From the IMG/VR virus record IMGVR_UViG_3300042558_004043: 64,000 nucleotides of DNA; one strand, 5' to 3'. Below are positions 3,629-52,850 of this stretch, one piece after another. How positions within the stretch are numbered: position 1 is the first letter of the stretch; each line of letters starts with the position of its first letter. The notes beneath the pieces were generated by a model, which saw only the letters and a program-made list of their open reading frames with translations, was not told the DNA's origin and did not search any database. Both the position numbers and the translations under genes were made by a program. The DNA comes from a virus. Its lineage: Duplodnaviria; Caudoviricetes.

Positions 3629-4930
3629 ATGTCAAATTCTTTTAAACTTCCAATATCACCCGAACAATTAAACGGAATTCAATCCGTTTCAAGAACTGAG
3701 GTTTTTGGTACAAACTATTCTGTATTAGGTATTGGTGGTTATATGGAAGTATATAACATTTCGGATTTAACATTTGAAATACCTTCAGGTGTAACTGGTA
3801 CTATAAGTCTGAGTTCCAATACAATACCAATTAATTTTATAAAAGGTAGTGGGCCCGCATATTCTCCTGATATTCTTGTTATGGGTTCTGACAATCTATC
3901 TTCAGGTAGAAGAAGATTGGGTATGTTGGCTTATGTGTATGAGACTGACCAAATCTACCAATATCGTATAGATAATTATGATACTCTATGGGCCGCGGCA
4001 ACAGGTGCTACAGGAGTTGGTGGTGATACGGTTGTTATGTCCGATTTTGGCACTACGGTAAAAAACAATTCCGTTGCCGGTCAAAACTTTATAAACGCGT
4101 GGACTGCAAATACTATAGAGGATGTAAGTGGTGAGACTAGTGTTACTGCCGTATGGAAAAAACTCGTAACCGGTGGCGGAGGTTCAACAGGACTGACCCC
4201 AAGTGATTATGTAGTACAAGGTAAGTTAAGTGCCAACCAATCAATCTCTGCAAATACAGATGTAATTATACAATTTGTAGATGACTTTGACCCACAAAAT
4301 TGGTGGAATGCGTCTACTTATCAACTCACTCCGACTATTGCAGGATATTATAATATTTTTGTTGGGGTATGGCTTGATAATCCGGGTGTAACAAATAATC
4401 AAGCAAATATTCAGGTTAGAAAAAATGGTAATTCATTTGTAATTGTACAAAATCCATTAAACAATGTAACGGGTCAAGCATTCGAGGCCAGTAAAATTGT
4501 CTATTTGAATGGTACTACAGATTATATCGAATTTACAATCTTTCAAGGCTCAACAGGAAGTGTCAATATATTACAAGGAACTGCCAATGGTTCGGGAACT
4601 TGGTTTTCCGCATCACTAATTGTCGGTGGAAACTCGGCGTTTACCGGAGGAGGAACAACGAACTACATTTCAAAATGGACAAGTTCTTCCAGTTTAGGAA
4701 ACAGTCAAATTTTTGATAACGGAACTTCTGTGGGTTTTGGGACATCCTCACCTAGTTCTAGTTCAATAGTTGATTTGACATCATCGTCTAAAGGATTTTT
4801 ACCTCCAAGAATGACGGAGTCTCAACGCAACGCAATATCAAGTCCAACAATTGGATTAATGGTTTATCAAACTAACGGAAGTGATGGAGTTTATGTATAT
4901 AAAGCTTCAGGGTGGGTCCAAATGATATAA
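3629..4930 (+). CDS. Tail fibre/decoration protein with C1q/TNF-like beta-sandwich domain
   Basis: QFVDDFDPQNWWNASTYQLTPTIAGYYNI...VRKNG...YLNGTTDYIEF...FSASLI fits the gC1q-like pattern; C-terminal GFLPPRMTESQRNAISSPTIGLMVYQT module. Confidence 0.65.
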   Translation: MSNSFKLPISPEQLNGIQSVSRTEVFGTNYSVLGIGGYMEVYNISDLTFEIPSGVTGTISLSSNTIPINFIKGSGPAYSPDILVMGSDNLSSGRRRLGMLAYVYETDQIYQYRIDNYDTLWAAATGATGVGGDTVVMSDFGTTVKNNSVAGQNFINAWTANTIEDVSGETSVTAVWKKLVTGGGGSTGLTPSDYVVQGKLSANQSISANTDVIIQFVDDFDPQNWWNASTYQLTPTIAGYYNIFVGVWLDNPGVTNNQANIQVRKNGNSFVIVQNPLNNVTGQAFEASKIVYLNGTTDYIEFTIFQGSTGSVNILQGTANGSGTWFSASLIVGGNSAFTGGGTTNYISKWTSSSSLGNSQIFDNGTSVGFGTSSPSSSSIVDLTSSSKGFLPPRMTESQRNAISSPTIGLMVYQTNGSDGVYVYKASGWVQMI

Positions 4931-43401: not shown

Positions 43402-44220
43402 ATGAGATTAAAATCAGTTAACGAAGGAATTACAGAAACCGGAACTCCGGACATGAAGTATTATGCATTTGATTGGGATGACAATATTTTGATAATGCCA
43501 ACAAAAATAATTCTTAAAGATAACAAGAATGATGAAGTTGGAATGTCTACCGAAGATTTTGCGGAATATAGAATGAAAATTGGTAAAGAACCTTTTGAAT
43601 ATAATGGACATAACATTGTAGGGTTTGCTGAAAATCCATTTAGGTATTTTAGTGTGGAAGGAGATAAACAGTTTATAATTGATTCTCTATTAGGAAAACC
43701 AGGTCCTGCTTGGTCTGATTTTGTAGAGTCTATTAATAACGGTTCTATTTTTTCAATCGTGACCGCTAGAGGACATACACCTGAAGTTATGAAAGAGTCA
43801 GTTTACAATATGATAATTTCAAACCATATGGGTATAGATTCTAATGAACTTCTAAAAAATTTAGAAAAATTTAGAGACATAGAAGGTATTGGTAAATCAT
43901 CAAAAAAAGAAATGATAAAAGAATACTTAAATATGTGTCGGTTTTACCCTGTAACTTATGGTAAAGGAAGTGCGGTTAGTCCCGAAGAAGGAAAAATTAA
44001 AGCTTTAAATGAATTTGTGGGATATGTTAAAAGAATCTCTAAACACATAGAGAAAAAGGCATATTTAAAGAATAGAATATCAAATAATTTTGTACCTACA
44101 ATTGGATTTTCTGATGATGACCTAATGAATTTGGAAAAAGTTAAAAGTCATTTTGAAAATGAACCAGATAATATAATTAAAACGATTTCAACTGCAGGAG
44201 GAGTAAAAAAACCTTATTAA
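43402..44220 (+). CDS. HAD-superfamily hydrolase-like protein
   Basis: YAFDWDDNI (DxD), IVTARGH, GFSDDD..N. Confidence 0.65.
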   Translation: MRLKSVNEGITETGTPDMKYYAFDWDDNILIMPTKIILKDNKNDEVGMSTEDFAEYRMKIGKEPFEYNGHNIVGFAENPFRYFSVEGDKQFIIDSLLGKPGPAWSDFVESINNGSIFSIVTARGHTPEVMKESVYNMIISNHMGIDSNELLKNLEKFRDIEGIGKSSKKEMIKEYLNMCRFYPVTYGKGSAVSPEEGKIKALNEFVGYVKRISKHIEKKAYLKNRISNNFVPTIGFSDDDLMNLEKVKSHFENEPDNIIKTISTAGGVKKPY

Positions 44221-44337: not shown

Positions 44338-44826
44338 ATGGCTGATTTATTAATGAAAATGCCCATACCTTATGAACCCAAAAGGAATAACCGATTTATT
44401 TTACGTTTTCCTTCTACATTAGGTATAAACGAGTGGTTCGTTGAATCTGCCGCTCGACCACATATTACGATTGTTAGTACTGAGATTCCATTCTTAAATA
44501 CCTCAACTTATGTTGCTGGTCGTTTTACATGGGGAGCTCTTAATGTAACTTTTAGAGACCCTATTGGTCCTTCCGCTTCACAAGCTCTAATGGAATGGGT
44601 TCGTTTATGTGCCGAATCAGTTACAGGTCGTATGGGTTATGCTGCAGGGTATAAAAAAAATGTTGACATTGAAATGTTAGACCCAACAGGAGTCGTGGTT
44701 GAAAAATGGATATTGGAAGGAACTTGGATGATGGACGTAAACTTTAATGCATTGAGTTATTCTGACGATAAAGTTTCAACAATCACCGCTCAACTTAGAA
44801 TGGACCGTTGTATCTTGGTTTATTAA
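44338..44826 (+). CDS. Tail tube protein (gp19-like)
   Basis: EPKRNNRF, YVAGRFTW, GYAAGYKK, LDPTGVVVEKWILEGTW. Confidence 0.9.
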   Translation: MADLLMKMPIPYEPKRNNRFILRFPSTLGINEWFVESAARPHITIVSTEIPFLNTSTYVAGRFTWGALNVTFRDPIGPSASQALMEWVRLCAESVTGRMGYAAGYKKNVDIEMLDPTGVVVEKWILEGTWMMDVNFNALSYSDDKVSTITAQLRMDRCILVY

Positions 44827-44875: not shown

Positions 44876-44886
44876 TTTTGTTTATT

Positions 44887-45012
44887 ATGGAAAACAATAC
44901 AGGATTTACATGTAATACTTGTGGTAAAGTTTTTGAAACTGAAGAAGAGTTTCTTAATCGACATAAAAAAAATTCCGAAAATCAACCGAAAGATAATCTA
45001 AATAAGGAATAA
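44887..45012 (+). CDS. 41 aa C2H2-like zinc-finger peptide (not in ORF track)
   Basis: MENNTGFTCNTCGKVFETEEEFLNRHKKNSENQPKDNLNKE; stop 1 nt before the chaperone ATG. Confidence 0.6.
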   Translation: MENNTGFTCNTCGKVFETEEEFLNRHKKNSENQPKDNLNKE

Positions 45013-45013
45013 A

Positions 45014-45769
45014 ATGGACCCAAGTCTTTTAAACGCCGCTACAGAAAATTTTAATCTACCTCATGACATGGTAGTACTTCCAACTGGAGGTATATTTTAT
45101 AAATCTAAAAAAAAGTCTATCAAAGTTGGGTATCTAACCGCTAGTGATGAGAATTATTTAATGTCAGGACTTGGTAATAGAGAAAATATAATTATGACTC
45201 TATTACGAAATAAAATTTACGAACATGATTTAAGACCTGACGAGTTATTAGAAGAAGACATTCAGGCAATTCTTTTATTTTTAAGGAATACATCTTTTGG
45301 TTCCGAATATATAGTAAACTTAGACGACCCCAGAACTGGAAAACAATTCGAAGAATCTATCATACTTGACGAAATTAGTATAAAAAAAGGATTGGTACAA
45401 CCAAATGAGGATGGAACTTTTACTACTAAATTACCTGTGTCAGGTGCAAATGTAAAAATAAGACCATTAGCTTTTGGTGAACTATTTGATATAGACAAAA
45501 TTGTTGAGAATTATCCTAAAGGTAGAGTCGCTCCAAAAGTAACTTTGAAATTACAAAAACAAATCGTGGAATTGGAAGGACAAAATGATTTAGGTAAAAT
45601 TAGTTTGTTTGTAGACCAATTACCTATCGGTGATTCGAAATATATTAGAAAGTTTTTAAAGGACAACGTGCCATCATTAGATTTAAACAAGAAAGTAACT
45701 ACCCCATCAGGAGAAAAGATAGATGTTGACATCGTCTTTGGGGTCGAATTTTTTCGCCCTTTCTTCTAA
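45014..45769 (+). CDS. Baseplate hub/tail assembly chaperone (T4 gp26-like)
   Basis: VVLPTGG, YLTASDEN, DIQAILLFLRNTSFG, C-terminal GVEFFRP; directly upstream of tape measure. Confidence 0.75.
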   Translation: MDPSLLNAATENFNLPHDMVVLPTGGIFYKSKKKSIKVGYLTASDENYLMSGLGNRENIIMTLLRNKIYEHDLRPDELLEEDIQAILLFLRNTSFGSEYIVNLDDPRTGKQFEESIILDEISIKKGLVQPNEDGTFTTKLPVSGANVKIRPLAFGELFDIDKIVENYPKGRVAPKVTLKLQKQIVELEGQNDLGKISLFVDQLPIGDSKYIRKFLKDNVPSLDLNKKVTTPSGEKIDVDIVFGVEFFRPFF

Positions 45770-45911
45770 CTATAGAATTTCTTTAGCGAACGAGTATATA
45801 ATTCTATCAAAAAATCTACATACGTCATATTCAGATTTTTTGATTATGCCAACTTATTTTAGAAAATATTTGATTGATAAGGTTATCGAGATTAACACAC
45901 CTAAAACCTAA
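45723..45911 (+). CDS. gp51-like chaperone extension in the +1 frame (own ATG or frameshift product)
   Basis: LANEYIILSKNLHTSYSDFLIMPTYFRKYLIDKVIE resembles the T4-like gp51 pattern. Confidence 0.55.
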   Translation: MLTSSLGSNFFALSSNYRISLANEYIILSKNLHTSYSDFLIMPTYFRKYLIDKVIEINTPKT

Positions 45912-45941: not shown

Positions 45942-47753
45942 ATGATGATGGCAACTACTGCAGAAACCGTACAAGATTTTTATGATTTTATATCAACTTT
46001 AGGAAAAAAAAGTGTTGAAACTTTTACAGAGAGTTTTGTACCCGGACTAAAATCAATTTTAAATACTGTACAAGAAGTTGATGCTCAGGCGGTTGCAGTT
46101 GCAAAATCATTTGGACAAGGAAGAGAGAATATTTTGTCAATCAAAACATCTTTGGTTGATGCAGCTTCTTCCGTTGAAGCTTTGGGTGGTAAATTTTCTG
46201 ATGTCGCGGATATTCAAACCAGTCTAGTTAAAAGTTTAAATAGAGCGGTTTTGTTAAGTTCCGATTCATACGAAAGTATTTTTGCAACTATAAAAGTAAC
46301 TGGCCAAGAAGCGGGTACTTTATTTACTCAGTTCAAAAATATAGGAGTATCGGCATATGGTGTTGCTGATGGGATGCAAAAAATTGTTGATACCGCAAGA
46401 CAACAGGGATTAAGTGTGGAGGCGGTGAGTAAACAAGCCGTTGATAACATGGAATCTATGAATAAGTATAACTTTCAAGGAGGTGTTGACGGATTGGCTA
46501 AAATGGCGGCCCAAGCAACTAGTTTAAGAATTGATATGGCAACTACTCTTAATTTTTCAAATGATTTATATAAGCCCGAAAAGGCGATTGAAATGTCAGC
46601 AGCACTCCAAAGACTTGGGGTTACTCAGTCTGAATTATTGGACCCATTAAGATTAATGGATTTATCTATTAATGACCCAACAGAACTTCAAAATCAATTA
46701 GTACAAATGACTCAACAATTTGTAACTATGAATGAGGCCGGACAATTTGAGATTGCGCCTGAGGGAAAACTTAGAATGAGAGAATTACAAGAAGCCACTG
46801 GAATTGCGTATGGAGAGTTAACAAAAATGGCTTTAGGTGGTGCCGAATTAGAAAATAAGTTATCTAAGATAAGATTTCCTGAGTTTATGACTGATGACCA
46901 GCAAAAAATGATTGCAAACCTTGCTGAAATGAAGGATGGTGAATATGTTGTAACAATTGATGGTAAAGCAGAAAGTTTAGAAGATTTATTATCTAGAACT
47001 GATAGTACTGCAGAACTTGAAAAAATTCTTGATGCCGCCAAACCTAAAACTATGGAAGATTTGGCATCCGAACAATTGGATATGCAAAAAAGTATGGAAG
47101 CTAGTATGGCGAAAATCGCTAATAGAACATCAAGAGCACTGGCAACATCAAATATCATTGAAGAATTAGGAAATGCGACTAGAGAAGGATACAAGGGATT
47201 GACAGATATTATAACTGAAAGGGATGTTATGTCGGCAAAAAGTATTAGAGAATTAATAAATGTTAATGGGGAGGTTATTGGAGATGTTGCTGAAAAAATG
47301 TTTAAGGGAGAAGATGTTGATTTGGGAGGTGTTGTTGCTGAAATGGGTGAAAAATCTGGTGGCATTTTTGCAGAACAACTTGAAGGTTTGGGGATTAATT
47401 TTGCAGAACAAATTAAGGGGTTACAAGAATCTGATAATCGCGTTGCGGAAGTAATGTCATCACTTTATGAAAATTTAGCAGATGTTATTAAAGAAAAAAC
47501 TGGATATGATATAAGGCCGGCCGATACCATGAACAGAAATAGAACTGATACCACAACAAATCAACAAGATAGAACGCAAACACAAAATATAAATTCTACA
47601 TCAACTGTCGATGTTACTATAAAATTAGATGTTCCGGCAGGTATGTCAGAAAGTGAAGTCATAAACGCATTAAGAACTGAACAAATCAAACAAGAAATAG
47701 TAAAAATTGTTGAGGAGAAACATCCTGACCTCAAGTTAAAACCAGCGCAGTAA
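45942..47753 (+). CDS. Tape measure protein
   Basis: Ala/Gln/Met-rich helical composition; position after tube and chaperone. Confidence 0.75.
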   Translation: MMMATTAETVQDFYDFISTLGKKSVETFTESFVPGLKSILNTVQEVDAQAVAVAKSFGQGRENILSIKTSLVDAASSVEALGGKFSDVADIQTSLVKSLNRAVLLSSDSYESIFATIKVTGQEAGTLFTQFKNIGVSAYGVADGMQKIVDTARQQGLSVEAVSKQAVDNMESMNKYNFQGGVDGLAKMAAQATSLRIDMATTLNFSNDLYKPEKAIEMSAALQRLGVTQSELLDPLRLMDLSINDPTELQNQLVQMTQQFVTMNEAGQFEIAPEGKLRMRELQEATGIAYGELTKMALGGAELENKLSKIRFPEFMTDDQQKMIANLAEMKDGEYVVTIDGKAESLEDLLSRTDSTAELEKILDAAKPKTMEDLASEQLDMQKSMEASMAKIANRTSRALATSNIIEELGNATREGYKGLTDIITERDVMSAKSIRELINVNGEVIGDVAEKMFKGEDVDLGGVVAEMGEKSGGIFAEQLEGLGINFAEQIKGLQESDNRVAEVMSSLYENLADVIKEKTGYDIRPADTMNRNRTDTTTNQQDRTQTQNINSTSTVDVTIKLDVPAGMSESEVINALRTEQIKQEIVKIVEEKHPDLKLKPAQ

Positions 47754-47792: not shown

Positions 47793-50700
47793 ATGTCAGA
47801 GAGCACTTTATCATTTGCATCTAGTGAATCTTTTCGTAAATCACTTATTGTAAGAAATTTACAACCGTATTCGGTTACGGGTGTTTATACTCCACCGGCT
47901 GGCGACATAACTTATGAGTATAATCAATCTGATTTTTCGGTTATTGATTCACCCGACAAATTGATTGCAAAAAATCCGTTTGTTAACAAACTATATCCTC
48001 TTAATGAATTTGGACCATCGGGTGGATTTGATTTTAATATTAATTATAACGGGTCATTAGTACCTGTAAAACCTTCAGGAGAACCTTATTATCCATTAAT
48101 TAATAGTCCCTTAATCGGGTTGAGTAATTATTGGTTAAATGAATTAGTTACGGGGCCTGCAAATCAGAACAGCTTCATACCCGACGGAGGATTTAAATTT
48201 TTATACGAGGTTGACGACTTACCTAATTTAAACAAATATTTTTCACCTTATTGGGACCCACCAACGTTTGTTCCGTCATTTTATAGTCCATATGAGATAT
48301 TAAGTTCATCTAACCCAGTTGGTTCTGACGGACCATTGTCACAAGATTCTTTTATTGCTCGTTTGGGAGCTCAAACATTAAGGGAACTTTTTGTTGAGAG
48401 AATTAATCTTGAAATTTATCAAAATACTGTAGGTGCGGTAAACTTGGCGAGTCTTCAGGACCCATTTGAAGCTAGTTTGTTAATAACAGGACAACAACCT
48501 TTAGTTTATAGAAATTGGAGAATCACTGTACCTGAAAATCCAATATTAGCGGTAGTTGATTTTGCAACAAGATTGGCTGGAGCTTATTGGCCCGTATCAC
48601 CGATACCTGGTGATTATTTTGATGAAAATACTAATGGTAATTTACAGACTAGTCAAACATCAACAGCGCTAAACGTAGTTAATAATTTAACGGGTGGGTT
48701 TTTAGGACCGATTTTAAATATAACTAGAAATCCATCTCAGATATTTTTAGCAAATACAGGAAACGGACAAAGGTCTGCATTATTCAATAATATAGATTAT
48801 AATAGATATAGACCGGCTTATGACAGAGGATTATTAGGTACCTTGGCTCAAGGATTAACAAATCTTTTAGCCTCGGCAATTAATCCGAATAATGGAACTT
48901 TGATAGGTGGTTATTATGTTGGAAGTAATACTTCAGAACCTTCACAAATAAACTCACCACCGAATCAGTTACCTATAAATCCTTACGGACAACAAGTTCA
49001 AACACCTGTTTATGGTCCATCTGAATTGGCAATTTTATATGAAGGAAACCAAGAAGTTCTTAATTTTGGATTAGCCGGCAAATCTTTATCCGATGGAGGA
49101 GGAATTGACGGTCAATTTGTTTGGACATCACCAAAATATAAAGGAAATGCGGGTTATAAACCTACACCAGGAGGAGGCACGGGAAGTTTAGATGAACAGT
49201 TCAATTTAGTTAGTGGTAATTACACTCGAGGTTCATCAACAAATGTTGATTTTAAGGATAATTCAATATTAGACCAAACTCAAAGGTTAATTGAATCTGC
49301 CGACTTAGTTGAAGGGATTGCCCGATTAAAACACGTAGGTAACGCAATCAATCAAGTTTCTAAAGTATTCAATGATGGATATAAAGAAATGACTAAAGGG
49401 TCTAAAGTTTTATCTTATGTTGATAATACAACTGGAACTCAAGCTGGTGTTGAGTATTGTAGAGTTTTTGCAAAAGATACACCATATTATACCTACTCTG
49501 ATTTACAAAAGACTGACGGAATTACTAATTCAGGGAGAAGGTTTTCATATTCCGTGTTAGATAACACCTTCAATTTGAATATTTCTCCAACCAAAAATCC
49601 TGGGTCAACAAATATTATTGCGGATGGAAATAACGGAACAGGTGGTTATGCTAAAAAATACATGTTCTCTATTGAAAATTTAGCTTGGAGAACATCCAGT
49701 AGACCTGGTTATACTTATGATGAACTTCCAACATGCGAGAAGGGACCAAACGGAGGTAGAGTTATGTGGTTTCCTCCATATGATTTAAAATTTAACGATA
49801 CAAGTAAACCAAGTTTTTCACCTACTTCATTTTTAGGTCGACCCGAACCAATTTATACATATAAAGATACTAGTCGTACTGGAAGTTTAAATTGGACTAT
49901 TATAGTTGACAGTCCTTCAATTATGAATTTAATTATTGAAAAACAATTGAAAGGTGCCGCCAAGGAAAGAGTTGATTCAATAATAGATTCCTTTTTTGCG
50001 GGGTGTGTGAAGTACGATATATATGAGTTAGCCCAAAAATTTAATACAATACCTGCCAAGGATTTATATACCTACCAAGAAATTTTGAATAATCCACAAT
50101 TAACCGAAGAAGAGGTTAATTTCGTGGTTGAATCAATACCTAAAGACCCTGAAGTTTGTACATCTGACGTTTGGGGTGACGTTCCTGAAACTAAAAAAGT
50201 GTCTAATGAGCCTGAATTAGAAGCATTTGCTGATACTTATACTAATTTGTCATTTTATTTTGATAATAATGTACCTGGACCTAATAATGGTACAACGTCA
50301 AATGAGGATTATTTGAGTGCTTACAACTCATATGTTAGTAATAAACAAGTTTACGGAGCTCAGGCTAATAATTTATTCAATACTGATGATTTTAATGGTA
50401 ATGTTCTTGATTTCTTTGATAATGTTATAACAAATAATTTTGAAAAAATTAATAGTGGTTCATCTTGTATGGTACAAGATTTATATAAGATATTATCAGA
50501 ACAAAAGGGAACTATTGTTATAACTTTAGAAGGAGCGGCGTCGGCTAAGGCAACGCCTGAATATAATCAAAAATTATCCGAAAGAAGAATTGATTCTGTA
50601 ATAAAATACTTACAAAACTATTCTGAAGGTGATGTTTCGTTTAAAAAATATTTAGAAGACGGTTCTTTAAAAATAAATTCGGCGGGAGGGTCTGGCGAAA

Positions 50701-52850
50701 ATACAACAATTCCAGTTGGGGAGGGAAACATATCCCAAGACCCTATTAATTGTACTGAAGAGACTAAAGATAAGAATGGTAAAACTAATCAAGGTTCGTT
50801 AATTTATTCTGTCAGTGCTATGGCATGTAGAAGAGTTAGGGTTACTAGTATTTCTTATACCGATATACCTAAAGAAGAAACAATTATGGTTAATAAAGTA
50901 ATTGGACAAACAACTGAAATAGAAAATCCCCCATCTGATAAAACATCAGGACAAGGTATTACCCCTCAGTTTCCAAAACCACAACCAACCGTAACAATTG
51001 AAAAGAAGTTAAAAGAAGGTATTAGTAAAAAAATATTAAGAAATTTATTGAGTGAGTGTGATTATTTTGAGGTGCTAAAACAAGATGTACCAATGGTATA
51101 TGATTCAATCAAAGAAAAAATTAGATACTTCAATCCAGCCTTTCACTCTATGACACCTGAGGGTTTAAATGCTAGATTAACTTTCCTTAATCAGTGTACA
51201 AGACCTGGAGAAACAGTTCCAACTATAGGTGCCGATGGTAAACCAAAGACAAATGATGCTATCAATACTTCTTTCGGAGCTCCTCCTATTCTAGTATTAA
51301 GAATCGGTGATTTCTATAACTGCAAAATAGTACCTGATAATGTTGCATTTACATATGAACCATTAATTTATGACATGAATCCTGAGGGGATTGGTTTACA
51401 ACCTATGATTGTAAAAGTTAATATGAGTTTTTCTATGATTGGAGGTCACGGACTTAAAGAACCGGTTGACCAATTACAAAATGCATTGTCGTTTAATTAT
51501 TATGCTAATACTGAAATTTATGATGAAAGGTCAACATGGACTGACGATTCGTGGAAAGTGATTGATAAGAAATTAATAGACTCAATCGAACAATCAGAAC
51601 AACCGGCAACAGTGGCTAATGTGGAAAGTCAAAGAACTAATGACGGGGGAACAACAATTGGTGAAATTATAACTAATATACCTGTTGAAAGTGGTCAAAC
51701 TGGTGAAATTGCATATCAAAAAATAATGGATACCCTGTTTGACCAAACAAAACAATATATTGATGCGGTTCCTAATCTTTTAGAAAAAATAATGTTAAAT
51801 ACAAACCAAGGTATTGTTCAGATTATAAGTAATGATAGATTATATAGTGAAGGGTTACTTAATGTTGATTTAGATGAAGTTGGTTCGGCCCCAATTTACG
51901 GAGCGCCAAATAAAATGGATGCGAAAATAAAAGAAATTTTTGATAAAGTAATATTAGAAATTCAGGACCAAACTAACCCAATTATTAGTCAATTAAATAC
52001 TATTGAATGGCAACCAAAGGATTTATCGGCGGTCATAACCAATATGGTTGATTATATTAATTCTCTTTCTTCCGAATTCTCAAATGGAATATTCACCACC
52101 ATACAGGAATTAGTTTTGTTGGAACAAGATTATGTTCAAAATTTAAGAAAAATAAATTTGGTTTCCGACTTAACTGACGGTAAAATTATTGATAAGGGAG
52201 TTCCAAGACCTTATACTCTTTCGGGAACTGATAAGGTTAGTGAATCAACAACCATTGATGATGATACTATAACAACAACAGATGACGAATTATGGAATGA
52301 CATTGCGAGATTACAATTAACTTTAGAGGAATATTATGAGTTTTTACAAAAAAAGAAGATATTTGAACCTATTGGTGATGTTGTGGTAAACTTTAAACCA
52401 ATATATCCTTATTTTATTAACTCAGGTGAAAGCCCAACACCTGAAAAAACATTCTTTTTAGTTATAGGTAGAATTTTTTACAATAGAACAAAACGACAAG
52501 AGTTTGTTGATGCAATTATTAAAGGAGATTTGGTTAACGTAAAAGACCCACAAAAATTAAAAAAGAAATTTGAGGATATTGTTGACGAGTTGTCCAAAGA
52601 GTATAGTAAAGAAATTGATGATGAAGAAAAATTATATAAAGACTTTAAAAAAAGTACTGAGTTTAAAGATTTTTCTGAAGGATTGGACGAAAAACTATAC
52701 CCTAAAGGAAAAACTCGTAAATTTACTTATACCACGGTGCCTGGAACTGATGAGGGAAATCAAAAAACCGCAATCACTAATTTATACAGCACAATAAATG
52801 TTGATGAGGATACAAAAACTTATATCGGTAAAGTTAAATTCAATTCATAA
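47793..52850 (+). CDS. Baseplate tail-tube initiator-like protein with inserted OmpA-like domain
   Basis: GRPEPIYTY...SRTGSL and APPILVLRIGD halves; EGAASAKATPEYNQKLSERRIDSV. Confidence 0.6.
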   Translation: MSESTLSFASSESFRKSLIVRNLQPYSVTGVYTPPAGDITYEYNQSDFSVIDSPDKLIAKNPFVNKLYPLNEFGPSGGFDFNINYNGSLVPVKPSGEPYYPLINSPLIGLSNYWLNELVTGPANQNSFIPDGGFKFLYEVDDLPNLNKYFSPYWDPPTFVPSFYSPYEILSSSNPVGSDGPLSQDSFIARLGAQTLRELFVERINLEIYQNTVGAVNLASLQDPFEASLLITGQQPLVYRNWRITVPENPILAVVDFATRLAGAYWPVSPIPGDYFDENTNGNLQTSQTSTALNVVNNLTGGFLGPILNITRNPSQIFLANTGNGQRSALFNNIDYNRYRPAYDRGLLGTLAQGLTNLLASAINPNNGTLIGGYYVGSNTSEPSQINSPPNQLPINPYGQQVQTPVYGPSELAILYEGNQEVLNFGLAGKSLSDGGGIDGQFVWTSPKYKGNAGYKPTPGGGTGSLDEQFNLVSGNYTRGSSTNVDFKDNSILDQTQRLIESADLVEGIARLKHVGNAINQVSKVFNDGYKEMTKGSKVLSYVDNTTGTQAGVEYCRVFAKDTPYYTYSDLQKTDGITNSGRRFSYSVLDNTFNLNISPTKNPGSTNIIADGNNGTGGYAKKYMFSIENLAWRTSSRPGYTYDELPTCEKGPNGGRVMWFPPYDLKFNDTSKPSFSPTSFLGRPEPIYTYKDTSRTGSLNWTIIVDSPSIMNLIIEKQLKGAAKERVDSIIDSFFAGCVKYDIYELAQKFNTIPAKDLYTYQEILNNPQLTEEEVNFVVESIPKDPEVCTSDVWGDVPETKKVSNEPELEAFADTYTNLSFYFDNNVPGPNNGTTSNEDYLSAYNSYVSNKQVYGAQANNLFNTDDFNGNVLDFFDNVITNNFEKINSGSSCMVQDLYKILSEQKGTIVITLEGAASAKATPEYNQKLSERRIDSVIKYLQNYSEGDVSFKKYLEDGSLKINSAGGSGENTTIPVGEGNISQDPINCTEETKDKNGKTNQGSLIYSVSAMACRRVRVTSISYTDIPKEETIMVNKVIGQTTEIENPPSDKTSGQGITPQFPKPQPTVTIEKKLKEGISKKILRNLLSECDYFEVLKQDVPMVYDSIKEKIRYFNPAFHSMTPEGLNARLTFLNQCTRPGETVPTIGADGKPKTNDAINTSFGAPPILVLRIGDFYNCKIVPDNVAFTYEPLIYDMNPEGIGLQPMIVKVNMSFSMIGGHGLKEPVDQLQNALSFNYYANTEIYDERSTWTDDSWKVIDKKLIDSIEQSEQPATVANVESQRTNDGGTTIGEIITNIPVESGQTGEIAYQKIMDTLFDQTKQYIDAVPNLLEKIMLNTNQGIVQIISNDRLYSEGLLNVDLDEVGSAPIYGAPNKMDAKIKEIFDKVILEIQDQTNPIISQLNTIEWQPKDLSAVITNMVDYINSLSSEFSNGIFTTIQELVLLEQDYVQNLRKINLVSDLTDGKIIDKGVPRPYTLSGTDKVSESTTIDDDTITTTDDELWNDIARLQLTLEEYYEFLQKKKIFEPIGDVVVNFKPIYPYFINSGESPTPEKTFFLVIGRIFYNRTKRQEFVDAIIKGDLVNVKDPQKLKKKFEDIVDELSKEYSKEIDDEEKLYKDFKKSTEFKDFSEGLDEKLYPKGKTRKFTYTTVPGTDEGNQKTAITNLYSTINVDEDTKTYIGKVKFNS

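Follow-up and report, generated by a model that had tools for sequence, protein, structure and literature searches.

The window analysed here, a stretch of 64,000 nucleotides (nt) from a tailed virus (Duplodnaviria; Caudoviricetes; IMG/VR record IMGVR_UViG_3300042558_004043), comes from a giant lake-water phage and has a GC content of 32.8%. Its contractile-tail module carries a sheath gene, a tube gene, two overlapping open reading frames (ORF1 and ORF2) and, by position, a tape measure gene (Table 1), in the same order as in the isolates. The tube protein scored 26.9 bits against Pfam Phage_T4_gp19, slightly below the 28.2-bit cut-off. No family match and no pairwise similarity was found to identify the 603-aa protein as a tape measure; its gene starts 30 nt past the end of ORF2, and at the corresponding position Flavobacterium phage immuto and Bacillus phages HSE3 and SP-15 have a gene annotated as tape measure. 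Equally, two overlapping ORFs lie between the tube and tape measure genes in the same order in five isolates, the next gene being annotated as tape measure in three of them. The original prediction had placed a frameshift at the chaperone-tape measure junction. The shift site itself held, but it lies where the chaperone gene meets the small +1 ORF; the presumed tape measure gene begins at 45942.

Two neighbouring products showed further features. The 44-aa ORF upstream of ORF1 has a C2H2-like pattern (F-x-C-x2-C-x3-F-x5-F-L-x2-H), and residues 893-945 of the 1685-aa protein matched the OmpA family weakly, at E 1e-4 and short of the cut-off. Across the window, SD-like motifs were seen at 3/40 gene starts (ORFs of at least 100 aa) and the leaders are A/T-rich; this scarcity of SD motifs together with A/T-rich leaders fits an SD-independent host, such as one of the Bacteroidota.

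Table 1 Features of the tail module in the window, and of the T4 and GenBank loci compared with it.
Feature	Position	Strand	Remarks
Tail sheath gene, 1195 aa	39757..43344	+	Pfam Phage_sheath_1 and Phage_sheath_1C; phrog_23 at 1e-56
272-aa gene between sheath and tube genes	43402-44220	+	without Pfam or PHROG match
Tail tube gene, 162 aa, gp19-like	44338..44826	+	phrog_4542 tail tube at 3e-24
44-aa ORF between tube gene and ORF1	44878-45012	+	
ORF1, zero-frame product, 251 aa	45014..45769	+	PF12322, phrog_150 baseplate hub
ATG in the +1 frame, non-conserved start	45723..45725	+	missing in 39/44 distinct relatives
TTTGGGG, 6 nt upstream of the T run	45737-45743	+	synonymous positions invariant in window clade
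Proposed shift site UUU_UUU_CGC	45749..45757	+	invariant TTT TTT CGS in 44 distinct relatives
+1-frame extension, 'T-like' domain, 51 codons + stop	45756..45911	+	open in all relatives
Presumed tape measure gene, 603 aa	45942..47753	+	assigned by position only
1685-aa protein gene, 3' of the presumed tape measure gene	47793-52850	+	
T4 gp26 gene	AF158101 (L081), 3803-4429	-	
Short hypothetical ORFs in GenBank records	L168 3746-3916; L169 3701-3877; L170 3812-3931; L167 3848-3958; L084 4752-4988		

ORF1 matched Pfam PF12322 (T4_baseplate, gp26/gp51) with 36.9 bits, against a gathering threshold of 24.5, over profile positions 10-214 of 219. The sequence places ORF1 among the baseplate-hub assembly chaperones of the T4 gp26/gp51 family, and its zero-frame product is the short form. 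T4 gp26 and gp51 are given as hub assembly chaperones (PMC3004832). ORF1 and ORF2 were modelled separately with AF2. The ORF1 model (pLDDT 86) had 67 matches in BFVD at E <= 0.001, including the SP-15 baseplate hub (TM 0.80), 'Baseplate hub assembly protein, T4-like' and Aeromonas phage 25 gp26. Among 48,161 PDB chains, VIA-align ranked 3fgx (Z 6.5), 3klu (Z 5.3) and 2ob9 (Z 5.0) first to third, Z values of 5-6.5 being below the level that the tool calls distinctive. 3klu is YqbN, an XkdN-type tail chaperone, and 2ob9, the third-best match, is the HK97 tail assembly chaperone; Foldseek aligned the ORF1 model to 2ob9 with a probability of 0.85 at E 0.26. Because the Z values reach only 5.0-6.5, this modelled likeness to tail assembly chaperones is suggestive of a related fold and is no proof of it.

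The 3' end of ORF1 reads GAA (45746-48) TTT (45749-51) TTT (45752-54) CGC (45755-57) CCT TTC TTC TAA (45767-69), exactly as the original prediction gave it for 45746-45769. A TAG at 45720-22 closes the +1 frame (equivalent to the -2 frame); from ATG 45723 the frame runs open over 62 codons, up to TAA 45909-11. The claim of a +1 frame open to 45911 was therefore correct, and the frame is likewise open in 44 + 71 distinct relatives of the two clades described below. We estimate the chance of 62 open codons at about 0.008, taking roughly 7.5% stops per random codon at the window's base composition. At the same site the -1 frame closes after 12 codons and would give a 12-residue tail only. Translation of 45014-45754 followed by 45756-45911 yields a predicted fusion of 298 aa, in which the ORF2 part is modelled as three helices (pLDDT 86). 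The predicted tryptic peptides that distinguish the outcomes are IDVDIVFGVEFFALSSNYR for the junction of a +1 shift, IDVDIVFGVEFFFALSSNYR for a -2 shift and IDVDIVFGVEFFR for the zero frame. The arginine codon at the site had been described as rarely used, and the counts agree: CGC and CGG are the rarest Arg codons, with 5 and 3, respectively, among 573 Arg codons counted over the 41 long ORFs of the window, or 0.3 and 0.2 per 1000 codons.

A scan of IMG/VR recovered 80 loci at 63-80% protein identity, which reduce to 44 distinct relatives, or 45 distinct sequences once the window is included. GAR TTT TTT CGS CCT TTC TTY stop was retained in 81/81 sequences (the window and all 80 loci), and the +1 frame stayed open for a further 50-53 codons in every locus of this window clade. 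Codons were counted in 24 representatives with less than 95% nucleotide identity. Five did not vary at all: Phe243 TTT, Gly244 GGG, Phe247 TTT, Phe248 TTT and Pro250 CCT. The Arg codon of the site is CGG in 17/24 and CGC in 7/24 representatives and AGA in none, against AGA in 177/209 Arg codons elsewhere in the ORF1 homologues, where CGC occurs once and CGG never. The codon before the stop, by comparison, varies between TTC and TTT. Pairwise synonymous identity in a sliding window rose modestly at the site, 0.78 versus 0.63 overall; since that measure is confounded by relatedness, we relied on the per-column codon counts. The check called for in the original prediction, nucleotide conservation of the site against conservation of the in-frame ATG, came out in favour of the shift: TTT TTT CGS and the open +1 frame were kept in 44/44 distinct relatives, the ATG in only 5/44. 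The synonymous variant TTC TTC AGA, named there as contrary evidence, was found in no homologue, nor was an own start of ORF2 conserved.

ORF2 could instead be a separate small gene, expressed from its own start (ATG 45723 in the window, an internal ATG or a TTG in other loci) or through reinitiation after termination of ORF1, with no fusion made. In the window itself, ATG 45723 is in frame with ORF2, no stop lies between them and AGGAG precedes it, so that a separate 62-aa product is also possible there; a TTG at -11 is present in 40/44 window-clade loci, and GenBank annotators called small downstream ORFs from internal starts. Initiation at ATG 45723, which the original prediction had offered as the alternative, is contradicted by the comparison: the 39/44 distinct relatives that lack this codon have no ATG upstream in the +1 frame, and 4/44 have no ATG, GTG or TTG upstream at all. 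The seven closest loci (L001-L007, 79-80% identity) do have the ATG, but a TAG in the +1 frame stands directly before AAT TTT TTC, between the ATG and the T run, and likewise severs the TTG at -11 from ORF2. This TAG means that in L001-L007 ORF2 can be entered only within GAA TTT TTT CGG CCT TTC TTC TAA, the last eight codons of ORF1. The AGGAG itself consists of conserved Ser-Gly-Glu codons, in a phage that makes little use of SD motifs.

Distant relatives, in lineages at about 25% identity that keep this gene order, were collected by tblastn against GenBank phages and by a second IMG/VR scan. In the clade of Microcystis phage Mel-JY01, 71 distinct loci have TTT TTT TGG CCT at the homologous Phe-Phe, where a +1 ORF of 65-114 codons begins, with the frame open in 71/71. 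Here 26/71 loci have no ATG, GTG or TTG upstream in the +1 frame, and in 10/71 ORF2 contains no ATG at all. Across the two clades, conservation of the +1 peptide starts at its first residue, F(G/A)L..Y(R/K)..L...MP...R, with F1, L3, P33 and R37 invariant and G2, Y7, L11 and M32 near-invariant; protein conservation extends upstream of every candidate internal start. Nucleotide diversity at the three codon positions of the +1 frame was 0.27, 0.19 and 0.43, highest at the third. By both the peptide and the nucleotide measure, the +1 frame reads as coding from the shift site onward. A classic TAATG start of the ORF2 homologue in LR756511 speaks for a separate gene in that phage; overall, the missing starts, the severing TAG and the conserved N-terminal residues leave a separately initiated ORF2 improbable.

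Seven GenBank phage records (five isolates, two metagenomic) also have a +1 ORF that opens at an in-frame TTT_Y at the homologous Phe-Phe. The site is AGC TTT CTT TGG in Flavobacterium phage immuto, TTC TTT CGT CCC in both Bacillus phage HSE3 (vB_BceM-HSE3) and phage GXN1, TTT TTT CAC in Bacillus phage SP-15, TTT TTT TGG in Rhodothermus phage RM378 and AAC TTT CTA in the huge phage LR756508. An in-frame UUU_Y is the only element common to all lineages with ORF2 in the +1 frame. In LR756511 (LR756511.1, a huge uncultured phage), the ORF2 homologue lies in the -1 frame, at about 3650-3930. This is the sole distant relative examined without an in-frame TTT_Y; its site reads TTT TTC TTC, and ORF2 is reachable from a T_TTT_TTC heptamer at the homologous Phe-Phe, besides having the overlapping TAATG. 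The -1 frame of LR756511 indicates that the direction of recoding, and perhaps even the need for it, varies within the family.

The interrupted T runs of the distant homologues bear on how the ribosome, or the polymerase, would reach ORF2. A -2 ribosomal frameshift on U6 leads to the same frame, with tRNA-Phe in the P site re-pairing perfectly two bases back, and would give ...EFFFALSS with one extra Phe. Such re-pairing is impossible with TTC TTT C, AAC TTT C or AGC TTT C, at which +1 slippage on UUU_Y works in every case. The -2 alternative, raised in the original prediction, is disfavoured by these sites (TTC TTT CGT, AAC TTT CTA and AGC TTT CTT), and we consider it very unlikely. Alternatively, RNA polymerase could omit one U within U6 (U7 in the other clade), which would produce the same protein as the +1 shift. 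The T run is invariant at T6 in the 44 window-clade loci and is T7 in 67/71 Mel-JY01-clade loci, more than a UUU_Y tetranucleotide needs, which leaves some room for transcriptional slippage. On the other hand, the +1 ORF is found at the same place behind interrupted runs in HSE3, GXN1, immuto and LR756508, and a conserved rare CGS is expected for a ribosomal pause and not for polymerase slippage. Known bacterial sites of transcriptional slippage are usually runs of 8-9 or more. We consider slippage of the polymerase unlikely. Because the interrupted runs bar a -2 shift and are poor substrates for polymerase slippage, a ribosomal +1 shift is favoured.

Taken with the codon counts, this comparative evidence gives strong support to the slip proposed originally, +1 movement of tRNA-Phe on UUU_C before a rare CGC to make a fusion of the G/GT kind. 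ORF1 and ORF2 are very probably joined by programmed +1 ribosomal frameshifting into a short and a long form of the chaperone. We infer the slip itself, its low efficiency, its products and their role in assembly from what is seen directly, namely the sequence and its conservation, a start that is not conserved, the rare codon and membership of the family. Most ribosomes would stop at TAA 45767 and release the 251-aa short form. In a minority, translation would pause with the A site empty over the rare CGC and UUU (45752-54) paired to tRNA-Phe in the P site. The tRNA-Phe would then re-pair one base forward on UUC (45753-55), and decoding would restart at GCC 45756-58. The resulting long form of 298 aa would consist of ORF1 residues 1-247 and an extension of 51 residues in three helices, and would be expected at a few per cent relative to the short form. 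If lambda gpG/gpGT is a guide, assembly of the hub, tape measure and tube may require both forms in a fixed ratio.

The pause in the window clade probably comes from the rare CGS codon. The identity of this codon is also constrained by the overlapping +1 codons GGC/GCC, and a rare A-site codon is not universal in the family, other clades having TGG, CGT, CAC, CTA or CTT. ARAGORN found no tRNA in the window, where a quadruplet-decoding phage tRNA was looked for. Two complete relatives of 318 kb and 322 kb (holding loci L028 and L053; tRNA islands L214-L217) have 21-23 tRNA genes each. Their sets include Arg(UCU) and Arg(ACG), and the latter could read CGC, which weighs against the rare-codon argument. 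In the same tRNA islands, ARAGORN called neither a tRNA-Phe nor a tRNA-Arg(CCG), and the anticodon loops were all ordinary, with no quadruplet-decoding tRNA among them. Each of the two relatives also has three or four tRNA-Pro(UGG) calls, some of them unusually long (78-94 nt).

No downstream RNA structure that could serve as a stimulator was found at the site (z 0.18); Alifold gave a weak hairpin enclosing it (-4.1 kcal/mol). A stimulator of the SD type is unlikely, since the genes of this phage lack SD motifs. With neither a structure nor a probable SD stimulator, the slip would be unstimulated and weak. A second conserved element, TTTGGGG, lies just upstream, its TTT and GGG each present in 24/24 representatives although GGG makes up only about 10% of Gly codons in the window. 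This conservation is absent from the second clade, and the search for a role found none beyond a weak hairpin with CCYU after the site.

That the genes of tail assembly chaperones undergo programmed frameshifting is textbook knowledge, the trait being conserved in long-tailed phages. A conserved frameshift in these genes was reportedly described by Xu, Hendrix and Duda in 2004. A later account has the G-T frameshift conserved among all long-tailed phages 'except T4', and the archaeal myovirus HSTV-2 is thought to use a +1 shift for its G-T pair (Atkins et al. 2016, PMC5009743). The locus described here resembles lambda gpG/gpGT in having overlapping ORFs between tube and tape measure genes, a second ORF whose start is not conserved, conservation of a slippery site a few codons ahead of the first stop, and a long form expected to be minor. 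It differs in the shift, which would be +1 on UUU_Y here and is -1 on a heptamer in lambda, and in ORF1, a PF12322 protein of 251 aa, about twice the size of gpG, with a fold only weakly like those of the HK97 and XkdN-type chaperones. A complex prediction for the tube protein with ORF2, probing for a tube contact like that of lambda T, scored 0.00, a value that counts neither way on binding. A search for natural proteins carrying ORF2 fused in frame found none, which is weak evidence.

The site itself has closer counterparts elsewhere. UUU_Ynn is described as a sequence at which bacterial ribosomes are particularly liable to shift +1 (Atkins et al. 2016, PMC5009743), and the +1 site of influenza A PA-X is UCC_UUU_CGU (PMC5009743). 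As at the UUU_Ynn sites of PA-X and Yersinia YopN-TyeA, tRNA-Phe in the P site would move from UUU to UUC before a CGN codon; HSE3 and GXN1 have exactly UUU_CGU_C. The likeness to PA-X extends to the absence of a stimulatory structure and the low efficiency expected. Unlike PA-X, these sites belong to bacterial hosts and to a gene for structural assembly, and the E-site codon is UUU/UUC rather than UCC. The proposed slip also resembles that of prfB (RF2), in which, while the A-site step is slow, the P-site tRNA moves +1 to a cognate codon overlapping the first. In contrast to prfB, the A site holds the sense codon CGC, with the stop four codons later, and the window has no SD-like stimulator at the required 3-nt spacing.

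In T4, gp26 (208 aa) and gp51 (249 aa) are encoded by two divergently transcribed genes, neither of which is followed by a +1 ORF; the +1 frame of gp26 closes after 14 codons. T4 gp26 ends in ...GLKEFFELL, three residues past a Phe-Phe that aligns with the shift site of the window, and gp51 extends about 50 residues past the aligned position, which is the length of ORF2. The profile of the fusion aligned with T4 gp51 through to the end of gp51 (P 0.0016). When ORF2 alone was aligned with hhalign, its best placement was the C-terminus of gp51, at a non-significant P of 0.37-0.51, with 48/300 column shuffles scoring equally, and a BFVD fold search with the ORF2 model returned nothing below E 2. 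The label 'gp51-like' given earlier to the ORF2 peptide thus lacks statistical support. The related idea of a gp26-gp51 fusion is to be read as an analogy and makes no claim of homology, since genes 26 and 51 of T4 are separate and divergently transcribed.

These comparisons admit an evolutionary reading, which we put forward tentatively. PF12322 may be the tail assembly chaperone family of T4-type contractile tails, with an ancestral state of one recoded gene giving a short and a long product that T4 later split into two paralogues. On the same tentative footing, the recoding might be +1 at UUU_Y in many lineages and -1 in others such as LR756511. Perhaps, too, the end of gp26 marks the former shift site and gp51 has the extension joined in frame. 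It is an attractive idea, and not an established one, that T4 uses separate genes for the short and the long form. If true, it would explain why T4 appears as an exception to the G/GT rule, and would account for the role of the 'catalytic' gp51.

In the literature searched we found no report of recoding in the gp26/gp51 family and no paper on the slip described here. The set examined, 115 distinct metagenomic loci and seven GenBank phage records, spans many T4-related and giant phages. A conserved recoding site in this family would give T4-type tails the two-product scheme known from lambda and a concrete, testable role to two poorly defined T4 assembly proteins. It would also add, for bacteria, a large collection of natural +1 UUU_Y sites. 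The finding extends a known principle, frameshifting in tail chaperone genes, rather than introducing a novel type of system.

The predicted long product is missing from current phage annotations, in which either no ORF is called or a small one, cut short by its internal ATG start, and none of the GenBank records examined is annotated with ribosomal slippage. The short hypothetical ORFs in Table 1 come from the records of Bacillus phages HSE3 and SP-15, RM378, immuto and Mel-JY01. In each of these the +1 ORF was called from an internal or overlap start, leaving part of the conserved coding sequence unannotated.
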